NCBI RefSeq assembly: GCF_003334765.1
Contig: NZ_QOWT01000007.1
Source: Escherichia coli
GTDB lineage: Bacteria; Pseudomonadota; Gammaproteobacteria; Enterobacterales; Enterobacteriaceae
Reading direction: 5' to 3' (one strand)
Length of the DNA stretch: 64,000 bases
The position numbers and the translations under genes were made by a program. The first letter of the stretch is position 1. Each line of letters starts with the position of its first letter. Under the pieces are notes generated by a model that was given only the letters and a program-made list of their open reading frames with translations, had not been told where the DNA came from and did no database searches. Below, one piece after another: positions 51,081-56,804 of this stretch.

Positions 51081-51207
51081 TCACTTCATCCTTCAAGCTG
51101 TCTCTGCGGCGGCTGCCTGCGTTCACTCCGGTCACTTACTTTTGTAAGCTCCCGGAGATTCACTTAGCTGCTGCCTTGATACCGCTCGAATGATTTTGTG
51201 AATTTAC
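51081..51207. repeat. ERIC (IRU) element between hldD and waaF
   Basis: Gene-strand core GTGAATCTCCGGGAGCTTACAAAAGTAAGTGACCGGAGTGAACG (plus 51120..51163) matches the ERIC1R-complement/ERIC2 primer sequence GTGAATCCCCAGGAGCTTACATAAGTAAGTGACTGGGGTGAGCG with compensatory stem changes; about 127 bp. Confidence 0.7.
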
Positions 51208-52140
51208 GTTGATGTCGCGATTCAGCCAGGCCATGTATTCCGTTACGCCTTCGGCAACGGTTTTGAACGGTTTGTCATAACCCGCCGCGCGCAGATTCGT
51301 CAGATCTGCCTGCGTGAATGCCTGATAGCGGCCTTTCAGTTTATCCGGGAACGGAATGTATTCGATCTGGCCTTTCTTGTGATAAGCAAGCGTTGCATCG
51401 GCTACCGCCTGGAAGGATTCCGCACGACCAGTACCGAGGTTGAAGATGCCGGAAACGCCATTTTCCAGGAACCACAGGTTTACATCTGCCACGTCGCCAA
51501 CATAGACGAAGTCGCGTTTAAAGTTCTCGCTACCTTCGAACAGCTTCGGTGATTCACCGTTATTAAGCTGGGTGTTGAGATGGAAAGCGACGCTCGCCAT
51601 GCTGCCTTTATGGCCTTCACGCGGTCCATAAACGTTGAAATAACGGAAGCCAACAATCTGTGAGTTTGCTTCCGGCAGAATTTGACGAACATATTCATCA
51701 AACAGGAATTTCGAGTAACCGTAGACGTTCAACGGTTTTTCGTACTCGCGGGATTCAATAAAGTCGGAAGTGCGACCGCCGTAAGTGGCTGCGGATGAAG
51801 CGTACAGGAACGGGATTTCACGCTCCAGGCAGTAGTGCAGCAGCTCCTTGGAGTATTGATAGTTGTTATCCATCATATACTTGCCGTCCCACTCGGTGGT
51901 GGAAGAGCACGCGCCTTCGTGGAAAATCGCTTCGACATCGCCGAACTCTTCGCCAGCCATAATCTGGATCAGGAAGTCTTCCTTATCCATATAGTCTGCG
52001 ATATTCAGGTCCACCAGGTTCACAAACTTGGTGCCGTCTTTCAGGTTGTCCACCACCAGAATATCGGTGATGCCTTTGTCATTCAGGGCTTTAACGATGT
52101 TGCTGCCGATAAAGCCCGCGCCGCCGGTAACGATGATCAT
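51160..52140 (-). CDS. hldD: ADP-L-glycero-D-manno-heptose 6-epimerase, open frame extended into the ERIC element
   Basis: 326-aa ORF; residues 1-309 read as HldD ([23 protein letters not shown] ... EYMAWLNRD), then 17 extra residues [17 protein letters not shown] encoded by the repeat; recalled K-12 protein ends ...WLNRDA at 310 aa. Confidence 0.85.
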
Positions 52141-52353
52141 AACTGTAACCTTCGAATTGTGGAGTCAGAGACAATCTCAGACACGAATACTTCTATCATA
52201 TCACTACACGGCGCTGGCTACAGCCATTCACCGAAAGTGGTATGCCTGAGCGTGATTTATGCTTATTTTTTGACAAGTACAAATGCTTCATCTCGTATCA
52301 ACCTATGGCTTTCGGTAATATGTGCTGAAATTTGCCCAGTCTGGAGAATCGCG

Positions 52354-53550
52354 ATGCGTGGAGATTTTTATCAGCAGTTAGCCAACGATCTGGAAACCGC
52401 TCGTGCGGAAGGATTGTTTAAAGAAGAGCGCATTATCACATCCGCTCAACAAGCGGATATCACTGTGGCGGATGGTAGCCACGTCATTAACTTTTGTGCC
52501 AATAACTACCTGGGGCTGGCGAACCACCCGGAACTGATTGCGGCAGCAAAAGCGGGAATGGATTCTCATGGTTTCGGCATGGCTTCGGTGCGTTTTATTT
52601 GTGGCACTCAGGACAGCCACAAAGAGCTTGAGCAGAAGCTGGCTGCATTCCTGGGGATGGAAGATGCGATTCTCTACTCTTCCTGCTTTGATGCTAACGG
52701 TGGCCTGTTTGAAACACTGCTGGGTGCGGAAGACGCCATTATCTCCGACGCACTGAACCACGCGTCTATTATTGATGGTGTGCGTCTGTGTAAAGCTAAA
52801 CGCTATCGCTATGCCAACAACGATATGCAGGAGCTTGAAGCTCGTCTGAAAGAAGCGCGTGAAGCCGGTGCGCGTCATGTGCTGATTGCCACCGATGGTG
52901 TGTTCTCGATGGACGGCGTGATTGCCAATCTGAAGGGCGTTTGCAATCTGGCAGATAAATACGATGCCCTGGTGATGGTAGACGACTCCCACGCGGTCGG
53001 TTTTGTCGGTGAAAACGGTCGTGGTTCCCATGAATACTGCGATGTGATGGGCCGGGTCGATATTATCACCGGTACGCTTGGTAAAGCGCTGGGCGGGGCT
53101 TCTGGTGGTTATACCGCGGCGCGCAAAGAAGTGGTTGAGTGGCTACGCCAGCGTTCTCGTCCGTACCTGTTCTCCAACTCGCTGGCACCAGCGATTGTCG
53201 CCGCTTCCATCAAAGTGCTGGAGATGGTTGAAGCGGGCAGCGAGCTACGTGACCGTTTGTGGGCGAACGCGCGTCAGTTCCGTGAGCAAATGTCGGCGGC
53301 GGGCTTTACCCTGGCGGGAGCCGATCACGCCATTATTCCGGTCATGCTTGGCGATGCGGTAGTGGCGCAGAAATTTGCTCGTGAGCTGCAAAAAGAGGGG
53401 ATTTACGTCACCGGTTTCTTCTATCCGGTCGTTCCGAAAGGTCAGGCGCGTATTCGTACCCAGATGTCTGCGGCGCATACCTCTGAGCAAATTACGCGCG
53501 CAGTAGAAGCATTCACGCGTATTGGTAAACAACTGGGCGTTATCGCCTGA
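52354..53550 (+). CDS. kbl: 2-amino-3-ketobutyrate CoA ligase (glycine C-acetyltransferase)
   Basis: ORF 51835..53550 has a stop-free upstream run; start at [14 protein letters not shown] (398 aa); PLP-dependent. Confidence 0.9.
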
Positions 53551-53559
53551 GGATGTGAA

Positions 53560-54585
53560 ATGAAAGCGTTATACAAACTGAAAGCGGAAGAAGGCATCTG
53601 GATGACCGACGTTCCTGAGCCGGAACTGGGTCATAACGATCTGCTGATTAAAATCCGTAAAACAGCCATCTGCGGGACTGACGTTCACATCTATAACTGG
53701 GATGAGTGGTCGCAAAAAACCATCCCGGTGCCGATGGTCGTGGGCCATGAATATGTCGGTGAAGTGGTAGGTATTGGTCAGGAAGTGAAAGGCTTCAAGA
53801 TTGGCGATCGCGTTTCTGGCGAAGGCCATATCACTTGCGGTCACTGTCGCAACTGTCGTGGCGGTCGTACCCATCTGTGCCGCAACACGATCGGCGTCGG
53901 CGTTAACCGCCCGGGCTGCTTCGCCGAATATCTGGTGATTCCGGCGTTCAACGCCTTCAAAATTCCCGACAATATCTCCGACGATCTGGCTTCCATTTTT
54001 GATCCCTTCGGTAATGCCGTGCATACCGCGCTGTCGTTCGATCTGGTTGGCGAGGATGTGCTGGTCTCTGGTGCAGGTCCGATAGGTATTATGGCTGCGG
54101 CGGTGGCGAAACACGTTGGTGCACGCAATGTGGTGATCACGGATGTTAATGAATATCGTCTCGAACTGGCGCGCAAAATGGGTATCACCCGTGCGGTCAA
54201 CGTCGCTAAAGAAAACCTTAATGATGTGATGGCAGAACTGGGTATGACCGAAGGCTTTGATGTCGGTCTGGAAATGTCCGGTGCGCCGCCAGCGTTTCGT
54301 ACCATGCTCGACACCATGAACCACGGCGGTCGTATTGCGATGTTGGGTATTCCACCTTCTGACATGTCGATAGACTGGACAAAAGTGATCTTTAAGGGCT
54401 TGTTCATTAAAGGCATTTACGGTCGTGAGATGTTTGAAACCTGGTACAAGATGGCGGCGCTGATTCAGTCTGGCCTCGATCTCTCGCCGATCATTACCCA
54501 TCGTTTCTCTATCGATGATTTCCAGAAGGGCTTTGACGCTATGCGTTCGGGCCAGTCCGGGAAAGTTATTCTGAGCTGGGATTAA
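53560..54585 (+). CDS. tdh: L-threonine 3-dehydrogenase
   Basis: 341 aa [32 protein letters not shown]; zinc ADH motifs GHEYVGEV and C-x2-C-x2-C. Confidence 0.95.
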
Positions 54586-54594
54586 CACGAACAA

Positions 54595-54616
54595 GGGCTG
54601 GTATTCCAGCCCTTTT
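54595..54616 (+). terminator. intrinsic terminator after kbl-tdh
   Basis: GGGCTGG-tatt-CCAGCCC stem followed by TTTT. Confidence 0.65.
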
Positions 54617-54823
54617 ATCTGAGGATAATCTGTTAAATATGTAAAATCCTGTCAGTGTAATAAAGAGTTCGTAATTGTGCTGATCTCTTATATAGCTGCT
54701 CTCATTATCTCTCTACCCTGAAGTGACTCTCTCACCTGTAAAAATAATATCTCACAGGCTTAATAGTTTCTTAATACAAAGCCTGTAAAACGTCAGGATA
54801 ACTTCAGAGGTCGTCGGTAATTT

Positions 54824-55858
54824 ATGATGAACAGCACCAATAAACTTAGTGTTATTATTCCGTTATATAATGCGGGCGATGATTTCCGCACTTGTATGGA
54901 ATCTTTAATTACGCAAACCTGGACTGCTCTGGAAATCATTATTATTAACGATGGTTCAACGGATAATTCTGTTGAAATAGCAAAGCATTACGCAGAAAAC
55001 TATCCGCACGTTCGTTTGTTGCATCAGGCGAATGCTGGCGCATCGGTGGCGCGTAATCGTGGGATTGAAGTGGCAACGGGCAAATATGTCGCTTTTGTCG
55101 ATGCTGACGATGAAGTCTATCCCACCATGTACGAAACGCTGATGACCATGGCGTTAGAGGACGACCTCGACGTGGCGCAGTGCAACGCTGACTGGTGTTT
55201 TCGTGAAACGGGAGAAACCTGGCAATCCATCCCCACCGATCGCCTTCGCTCAACCGGCGTCTTAACCGGCCCGGACTGGCTGCGGATGGGGCTTTCTTCG
55301 CGCCGTTGGACTCACGTTGTCTGGATGGGGGTTTATCGCCGTGATGTTATTGTTAAAAATAACATTAAATTTATTGCCGGATTACATCATCAGGATATTG
55401 TCTGGACAACAGAATTCATGTTTAACGCGCTGCGTGCGCGATATACCGAGCAATCATTATATAAATATTATCTGCATAATACGTCAGTGAGTCGGTTGCA
55501 TAGACAAGGGAATAAAAACCTTAATTATCAACGTCACTATATTAAGATTACCCGCCTGCTGGAGAAATTAAATCGAAATTATGCCGACAAAATTATGATT
55601 TATCCGGAATTTCATCAGCAAATAACTTACGAGGCATTGCGTGTTTGCCATGCGGTGCGCAAAGAGCCGGATATTCTTACCCGCCAACGGATGATTGCCG
55701 AGATATTTACTTCCGGTATGTATAAGCGCCTGATTACCAATGTGCGCAGCGTGAAGGTCGGTTACCAGGCGTTACTGTGGTCTTTCCGCTTATGGCAATG
55801 GCGCGACAAAACGCGGTCGCACCATCGCATTACGCGTAGCGCCTTTAATTTGCGCTAG
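54824..55858 (+). CDS. waaH: GT2-family glycosyltransferase (LPS glucuronic acid transferase WaaH/YibD)
   Basis: 344 aa; GT2 motifs LSVIIPLYNAGD and VAFVDADDE. Confidence 0.85.
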   Translation: MMNSTNKLSVIIPLYNAGDDFRTCMESLITQTWTALEIIIINDGSTDNSVEIAKHYAENYPHVRLLHQANAGASVARNRGIEVATGKYVAFVDADDEVYPTMYETLMTMALEDDLDVAQCNADWCFRETGETWQSIPTDRLRSTGVLTGPDWLRMGLSSRRWTHVVWMGVYRRDVIVKNNIKFIAGLHHQDIVWTTEFMFNALRARYTEQSLYKYYLHNTSVSRLHRQGNKNLNYQRHYIKITRLLEKLNRNYADKIMIYPEFHQQITYEALRVCHAVRKEPDILTRQRMIAEIFTSGMYKRLITNVRSVKVGYQALLWSFRLWQWRDKTRSHHRITRSAFNLR

Positions 55859-56804
55859 CGTTAAACTTCGCCGCTTCGGGCTGTTTGCCCCAGCCTTGCC
55901 ACTGATGCTGGAAGTAAACGATCAGCGTGCTCTGGCTGATACTTTCGCTTAATACTTCAAAGAAGCGATTAGCATAAACAGGTTCTATCGGTTTCTTCGG
56001 TTTGCACAGCTTCACGCCACGGAACGGATTACGCGGTGCATCAGGCACAGCGTTTTTCGGCGGTGTAGAAGTATCAACCTGCGGTTCATTCAGCAAGCTG
56101 CTGGCTTTCACCAGCGTAATGTCTGGCGGCAGGTTATAAACCATCTGTTGTAGCACGCGTACCGTTGAAGGGTGAGGATGCCCAATGGCAATGGTTGAAC
56201 CGTTGCGACGCGCCAGATCAATTGCGCGATTAAATTGCACACGGATGTCCGCTTCGTTCTGCGAATCGTCGAGGAACACCTTCCGTTTGATCACCTTCAC
56301 GCCAGTACCTTGCGCGGCGCGCATCGCCTGGGTATTACCGATGGTTACGCTGTCGAGGAAGTAAAGATTGTAACGCTCCAGTGCCTGCATCACTTTCTGC
56401 ATACCAAACAGGTTAGAGGTCATCTTGCTACCCATGTGGTTGTTGATCCCCACGGCATAGGGCACGTTATTGACCGCACTACGAATAATGCGCTCAATTT
56501 CGTCGCTGCTCATCTCCGGGCGCAGCGTATTTTTCTCCAGCGGCTGTTTACTCAGTGGTGCCATCGGGAGATGAATCAACACTTCGTGCCCGCTGTTATG
56601 CGCTTTGGTCGCCATCTCTCTGGCGTGCGGTGAATCGGGTAATACAGCGACGGAGATAGCGGAGGGCATCGCCAGCACCTGGTTTTCGTTGTGCGGGCGA
56701 TACCCAAAATCATCAATGACGATGGCAAGTTTGCCAGCAAGTACGGGGGAGGAGAGCACCAACAGAGCGGCAAATGCAAGAACGTTACGACGAAATGGAA
56801 ACAA
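55845..56804 (-). CDS. yibQ: divergent polysaccharide deacetylase family protein
   Basis: 319 aa with signal peptide; 3' end overlaps the waaH 3' end by 14 nt (convergent). Confidence 0.85.
   Translation of the reverse strand: MFPFRRNVLAFAALLVLSSPVLAGKLAIVIDDFGYRPHNENQVLAMPSAISVAVLPDSPHAREMATKAHNSGHEVLIHLPMAPLSKQPLEKNTLRPEMSSDEIERIIRSAVNNVPYAVGINNHMGSKMTSNLFGMQKVMQALERYNLYFLDSVTIGNTQAMRAAQGTGVKVIKRKVFLDDSQNEADIRVQFNRAIDLARRNGSTIAIGHPHPSTVRVLQQMVYNLPPDITLVKASSLLNEPQVDTSTPPKNAVPDAPRNPFRGVKLCKPKKPIEPVYANRFFEVLSESISQSTLIVYFQHQWQGWGKQPEAAKFNASAN

Follow-up and report, generated by a model that had tools for sequence, protein, structure and literature searches.

The compact, htrL-free hldD-kbl interval at the edge of the Escherichia coli waa locus: a common and probably ancestral arrangement

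Beside the O-antigen cluster, the flanking housekeeping gene gnd hitch-hikes with the polysaccharide locus. At the edge of the waa locus, the nearest point of comparison is E. coli K-12 (BW25113), in which the order is rfaD (hldD, minus strand), yibB/htrL (plus strand) and kbl (plus strand), with a spacer of 1435 bp between hldD and kbl. The gene htrL/yibB was listed among the variable genes of the waa cluster in a pangenome study (PMC8303582), the spacer between htrL and hldD of K-12 figures among listed H-NS sites (PMC3946193), and transcription of the gmhD(htrM)-waaF-waaC operon is heat-induced in K-12 (cited in PMC8745692). As for kbl, a promoter-up mutation at -60 from the gene, "in the -35 element", was described in Salmonella, together with Lrp sites upstream of the kbl -35 element (PMC6593847).

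The window studied here, i.e., the whole stretch of 64,000 nucleotides of E. coli DNA, lacks htrL at this place. A first-pass annotation had read this absence, together with an ERIC insertion at the other end of hldD, as the mark of a recombination-prone edge of the waa region. The observation itself is real, ordinary and already known from genome annotation and pangenome work; its interpretation is reconsidered below.

The hldD-kbl interval of the window compared with K-12

The features that delimit the interval are as follows.

51160-52140, minus strand: hldD (rfaD), coding sequence of 326 aa, first gene of the hldD-waaF-waaC(-waaL) operon (open reading frame list and RefSeq annotation of E. 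coli M217)
52141-52353: divergent hldD-kbl spacer without htrL, 213 bp
52354-53550, plus strand: kbl, glycine C-acetyltransferase (same two sources)
51084-51205: ERIC-type insertion between waaF and hldD, about 120 bp

The coordinates of the 213-bp gap were borne out by the open reading frame list and by the annotation of M217, which, like other E. coli genomes, contains a sequence 100% identical to 51800-52700 (megablast) and in which the RefSeq gene starts match. Downstream of kbl lie tdh (53560-54585), then waaH and yibQ. The claimed absence of htrL held as well, no HtrL-like sequence being found in 52141-52353, where BLAST against the K-12 spacer gave, for the cassette part, only chance matches of 9-21 bp. 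The K-12 arrangement had also been stated correctly: htrL (yibB) was seen between kbl and hldD in BW25113, and direct adjacency of kbl and hldD is not the case there.

The K-12 region (MG1655/BW25113) resembles the window in its flanking genes and their orientation, and hldD is 97% identical to K-12 rfaD at the DNA level. In pairwise BLAST, positions 51800-52188 were 99.2% identical to K-12, including the first 48 bp upstream of hldD (99%), after which 1284 bp in K-12 stand against 62 bp in the window. Homology resumes at 52251, 103 bp upstream of kbl; about 105 bp upstream of kbl are homologous in both, at only about 88% identity. The K-12 segment, an htrL cassette of about 1.28 kb, encodes a PF09612/TIGR02192 protein of unknown function, and a PDB sequence search with HtrL returned chance-level matches only. 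Its GC content (about 27-40%, roughly 36%) compares with about 50% in the flanks; over the whole spacer, GC is 36.6% in K-12 and 38.9% in Enterobacter sp. Ag1, another htrL-bearing genome.

The other boundary of hldD likewise differs from K-12, and the statement that both flanks of the heptose operon are unlike K-12 therefore stands, with htrL absent on one side and the ERIC element present on the other. The ERIC core palindrome was seen in 51084-51205, where K-12, O157 and R1 strains, which lack it, show a gap of about 120 bp. The consensus used for this comparison, which we take to be GTGAATC.CC.GGAGCTTAC...GTAAGTGAC.GG.GTGA, has a central imperfect palindrome and a length of about 120 bp. 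The insertion takes the place of the hldD stop codon, so that HldD gains 16 residues at its C-terminus and grows from 310 to 326 aa. The region also gave a weak match to the Rfam family V_AS5 (29 bits, below the gathering score). The ERIC junction was found in 480 of 5426 complete E. coli genomes.

Two conserved halves and a variable linker

Conservation within the spacer was read from an alignment of 24 enterobacterial spacers (22 species loci and two E. coli), in which the following elements were located, from hldD toward kbl.

52145-52156, minus strand: putative hldD ribosome-binding region, TTCGAAGGTTAC on the hldD strand, with a conserved AAGG core
52164-52182, minus strand: hairpin in the hldD 5' leader, GUCUGAGA-UUG-UCUCUGAC, with one U-U mismatch
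52195-52203, minus strand: putative extended -10 element of the hldD promoter, TGATATGAT on the hldD strand (TG-n-TATGAT)
52216-52233, minus strand: conserved upstream block, CGGTGAATGGCTG(A/T)AGCC, covering the -35 position, with a presumed promoter role
52232-52249: non-conserved linker of 18 bp, the position of the htrL cassette in K-12, O157 and Enterobacter sp. Ag1
52250-52275, plus strand: conserved kbl-upstream block, GCGTGATTTATGC... (alignment block ...CGTGATTTATGCTGCAAAA), candidate Lrp-binding or upstream promoter region
52288-52325, plus strand: putative kbl-tdh core promoter, TCATCTCGT (-35 region) and GGTAATATGTGC (-10)
52342-52349, plus strand: putative kbl ribosome-binding region, TGGAGAAT, near-invariant

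The hldD-proximal half, of about 95 bp, would thus comprise a short leader with a hairpin, TGnTATGAT and the conserved upstream block, and the extended -10 promoter and 5' hairpin may serve hldD-waaFC(L). The conserved block on this side reads CGGTGAATGGCTGAAG in the 24-spacer alignment, and TATGAT was present in 24 of the 24 spacers as well as in K-12, O157 and Enterobacter sp. Ag1, the complete TGnTATGAT being kept in K-12. The putative -35 hexamer of hldD is CTGTAG in the window (52218-52223) and CTGAAG in most species; both CTGTAG and the putative kbl -35 hexamer, CTCGTA, match TTGACA poorly. No convincing instance of the sigma-32 motif CTTGAA-N13-15-CCCCATnT, or of a sigma-E motif, was seen by eye in the compact spacer. 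When 51900-52600 was scanned, the single consensus sigma-70 match overlapped the hldD start codon, at chance level, and was not credible; a weak terminator-like match over the kbl start, also at chance level, was discarded.

The kbl-proximal half, of about 105 bp, would consist of a promoter and its upstream block, with conserved elements CGTGATTTATGC..., TCATCTCGT, GGTAATATGTGC and TGGAGAAT in the same alignment, and an Lrp-controlled promoter would here serve kbl-tdh. The putative -35 hexamer (CTCGTA, 52292-52297) lies 18 bp upstream of the -10 hexamer TAATAT (52316-52321). Position -60 from kbl is 52294 and the adjacent G is 52295, both within CTCGTA. By analogy with Salmonella, the kbl-upstream block is probably bound by Lrp.

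Between these halves, the linker of about 18 bp appears neutral, and insertions would therefore be tolerated there. When compact and htrL-bearing spacers were aligned together (MAFFT), the large gap opened after TTCAGCCATTCACC and closed before CGT(G/T)ATTTAT. Homology of K-12 and O157 on the hldD side extends up to the upstream block at 52216-52233, with lower identity through the -10 region, and ends after TTCAGCC(A/C)TT(C/T)AC, about 95 bp upstream of the hldD start. Unlike the window, K-12 carries htrL/yibB (PF09612) and an AT-rich, H-NS-listed region in place of the 18-bp linker.

The strong blockwise conservation of the spacer could also be taken to mean that a functional gene has escaped annotation there, one that codes for a small protein or an sRNA and substitutes for htrL. 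Mechanical ORF calling did find one frame of at least 30 aa lying fully inside the spacer, at 52196-52291 on the minus strand (31 aa). This frame, however, matched no NCBIfam family, crosses the non-conserved linker and overlaps both promoter halves, while conservation is limited to promoter- and leader-type blocks and the indels would disrupt the reading frame; an Rfam scan of the spacer gave no family match either. A hidden gene is therefore most improbable.

The leader hairpin deserves separate consideration. Across 19 enterobacterial leaders, RNAalifold gave seven pairs, five of them with compensatory changes. With 90.2% of the cells paired, none of 500 shuffles reached its covariation score and slid controls were far lower, for a structure that was derived from the same alignment. 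In E. coli alone the hairpin is weak (-6.4 kcal/mol, z +1.06), its stability not exceeding that of shuffled sequences, and 52164-52182 corresponded to no Rfam family. We tentatively suggest that this hairpin could act in cis in the hldD-waaFC mRNA, as a so far undescribed RNA element that controls how stable the message is or how well it is translated, and that it might contribute to the known heat induction of the operon. Separately and equally tentatively, the linker could be a place where accessory LPS-core genes have docked repeatedly, in several genera.

Compact and htrL-bearing spacers in E. coli and other Enterobacterales

The state of the population, rather than chance, was taken as the relevant null, and 5426 complete E. 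coli genomes were used as the comparison set. The compact junction was present in one piece in 3466 of them (64%), and the 1284-bp K-12-specific segment in 1959 (about 36%); these two classes together account for 5425 of the 5426 genomes. The view that a missing htrL marks an unusual or rearranged locus was thus not borne out, this synteny check giving the compact form in 64% of E. coli. Individual strains were distributed as follows.

ATCC 25922 and B (R1 core): htrL absent, spacer of 213 bp
O157:H7 (R3 core): htrL present, spacer as in K-12
B36 and AVS0744 (K-12-type waaU/waaL, ST131-like): htrL absent, spacer of 213 bp

Core-specific segments were found in 1032 genomes for the K-12 type, 1364 for R3, 1833 for R1 and about 500 for R2 (waaZ-waaK block, 491-501), while 694 genomes gave partial R1 matches (R4-like). 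A strict tie between htrL and the K-12 and R3 cores was considered and rejected, since these two types add up to 2396 genomes and outnumber the 1959 that bear htrL; it is also contradicted by B36 and AVS0744, two strains with a K-12-type core and no htrL. It follows from the counts that htrL is an accessory gene, common in K-12 and R3 backgrounds and unbound to core type. The two strains, whose waaU and waaL are 96.9% identical to those of K-12, likewise indicate that htrL is neither required by nor bound to that type of outer core.

Outgroups were examined by scanning one genome per species for HldD and searching the 5-kb flanks for Kbl and HtrL by tblastn, which yielded 80 Enterobacterales loci, Salmonella not being among them. 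In this set, all loci from Escherichia and its close relatives among the Enterobacteriaceae genera had kbl divergent from hldD, and in 20 of these loci the gap was 212-217 bp. These included a cryptic Escherichia lineage, E. albertii (213 bp), Citrobacter (214 bp), Enterobacter (215 bp), Kosakonia, Kluyvera, Pluralibacter, Pseudescherichia and others. Most kbl-bearing loci of Erwiniaceae, Yersiniaceae and Pectobacteriaceae (Erwinia, Pantoea, Yersinia, Serratia, Pectobacterium) and of Photorhabdus had gaps of 228-280 bp, those of Yersinia and Serratia being of about 240 bp. A single locus of the 80, that of Enterobacter sp. Ag1, carried htrL in the hldD-kbl interval (L026, 3562-5000; 81% amino acid identity), within a spacer that is collinear with that of K-12 (73% DNA identity over 1161 bp) and has a GC content of 39%.

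The window spacer shows the traits of the compact type, namely adjacent divergent genes, a length in the 212-217-bp range and conserved blocks on both sides. Compact R1 E. coli (ATCC 25922, B), E. albertii, Citrobacter and Enterobacter share this same architecture, with spacers of 213-215 bp and the same conserved blocks. No IS remnant, inverted repeat or truncated gene was found at the window junction, and the spacer aligns end to end with the outgroup spacers. Since the compact layout prevails in the outgroups, the compact spacer is read as ancestral and the insertion in K-12 and O157 as derived. We accordingly give a probability of about 0.85 to the reading in which these 213 bp are not a deletion scar but an ancestral region where the promoters of two divergent operons lie back to back.

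A precise secondary loss of the cassette from an htrL-bearing ancestor would produce the same gene order. Changes of state within E. coli do occur, the K-12-type core being found both with and without htrL, and deletions are known at this site, such as the IS1-associated loss of htrL, kbl and tdh in strain PKF8. However, the compact spacer is base-for-base collinear with those of E. albertii, Citrobacter and Enterobacter, their lengths being within 3 bp, and holds no htrL remnant. The base composition of the cassette is foreign, and the 40-odd bp beside the hldD leader in K-12 are a different, Ag1-like allele, which fits the import of a whole segment. Taken together, these elements make a secondary deletion unlikely. 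Given presence/absence data alone, ancestral polymorphism with many independent losses of htrL may also be envisaged.

In strain PKF8 (L088, 3453-4675), an IS1 adjoins the upstream region of hldD, and a deletion has removed htrL, kbl, tdh and the greater part of waaH. This strain keeps just the first 218 bp of the K-12-type spacer, and its waaH is truncated.

With the compact interval taken as ancestral, the direction and mechanism of cassette gain are inferred from sequence comparison. A low-GC cassette, made of htrL/yibB and its own AT-rich promoter region, would have been placed in the linker, leaving both native promoter halves intact. It was probably acquired through homologous recombination in the flanks, with DNA of a lineage in which the cassette was already present, an htrL-bearing donor being suggested because Enterobacter sp. 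Ag1 has the same architecture. The K-12 allele at 48-95 bp upstream of hldD is closer to that of Enterobacter sp. Ag1 than to that of compact E. coli, in line with the import of flank plus cassette by homologous recombination. One crossover may have occurred near window position 52188, cassette and flank being imported together.

Other accessory genes were observed at the same place. Citrobacter sp. Cu233 (L010, 3546-4697) and C. youngae carry, at the hldD-kbl site and in the orientation of kbl, a gene for a WaaB-like GT4 glycosyltransferase, with a score of 381 bits for NCBIfam PRK09922 (cutoff 385). This insert and the htrL of Enterobacter sp. Ag1 have in common the same site, the orientation of kbl and a low GC content, whereas the window holds no accessory insert, unlike Ag1 and the two Citrobacter strains. 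Accessory LPS genes have entered the hldD-kbl site on more than one occasion.

A distant homologue of HtrL (51% amino acid identity) was also seen in Providencia sp. (L071, 8115-8960), downstream and not upstream of hldD. It may lie in an LPS core cluster, which would be consistent with an LPS-related role of the family.

The divergent spacer and kbl 5' allele of the window

52189-52700: divergent allele patch, probably R2-linked, comprising the spacer and the first 350 bp or so of kbl

The sequence of the window spacer departs from that of other E. coli: its identity is 84% with R1 E. coli and 86% with Citrobacter. The first 347 bp of kbl are 91-92% identical to all the other E. coli alleles sampled, and spacer and kbl 5' patch together are 83-92% identical to them (8-17% divergence), whereas these other alleles are at least 99% identical to one another over the first 200 bp of the kbl 5' stretch. 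The derived states GTGATTTATGCTT, CGTATCAAC and CTGAAATTTGCCCAG, close to kbl, are common to the window allele and Citrobacter. Compact R1 spacers lack these Citrobacter-shared states and differ from the window at the putative hldD -35 element, with CTGAAG against CTGTAG. The divergent allele was found, at 99% identity or more, in 479 of the 5426 genomes (479-483).

The kbl-proximal half of the spacer and the first 350 bp or so of kbl look as if they had come from some more remote enterobacterial source. Selection acting in situ, relaxed or diversifying, could be invoked instead, as promoter regions evolve fast and the neighbouring waa locus is under diversifying selection. Yet the divergence, of 8-11%, reaches about 350 bp into the kbl coding sequence and then drops to 3-4%, and over the same 200 bp the other E. 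coli alleles all agree with one another at 99% identity or more. The derived states shared with Citrobacter, and an allele shared at 99% identity or more by about 480 genomes, also have the pattern of a discrete import, so that in situ divergence appears very unlikely.

The genome identical to the window over this region, M217, carries the R2 set of genes, with waaZ and waaK (LPS GlcNAc-transferase) beside waaL, upstream of hldD-waaFC. By comparison with the gene sets of the core types, that of the window is taken here to be R2. Among the 5426 genomes, the waaZ-waaK block was present in 491-501 (491 at 99% identity or more). The near-equal counts of the spacer allele (479-483), the ERIC junction (480) and this block (491-501) suggest that the three belong to one R2-linked haplotype, which would cover outer-core genes, hldD and the beginning of kbl.

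Along the region, identity to other E. coli forms a mosaic, with 83-95% in 52140-52735 and 89-95% in 53936-54335, while 54536-56134, across waaH, is 100% identical to both K-12 and B. Such a mosaic across kbl, tdh and waaH is as expected from recombination at the edge of a variable polysaccharide locus. The first-pass description of the site as a recombination-prone edge of the waa region can thus be retained in part: it is supported by the mosaic identity and by the divergent spacer and kbl 5' allele, but the absence of htrL does not count as a sign of it, being a common ancestral state. The situation is like that of gnd and the O-antigen cluster in that a housekeeping flank shows elevated mosaic divergence, with alleles linked to polysaccharide type. 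It differs in that the flank is here kbl-tdh, beside the waa core, and in that the linked tract is short and ends within kbl.

In a patch covering part of tdh (53736-54335), the window is 89-94% identical to K-12, and the divergence between K-12 and O157 is itself 7-8% there.

These results correct a K-12-centred expectation: the reference strain is the exception, and a locus without htrL should not be reported as rearranged. From this standpoint, htrL/yibB is an accessory gene, carried by about 36% of complete E. coli genomes and not tied to a single core type. The R2 core haplotype appears to run past hldD into the first 350 bp or so of kbl, together with an ERIC-extended HldD of 326 aa. For work that compares the regulation of hldD or kbl-tdh across strains, it should be noted that at least three spacer alleles exist. 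Of more modest interest are the covarying hairpin of the hldD leader and the repeated landing of accessory LPS genes in the hldD-kbl linker.
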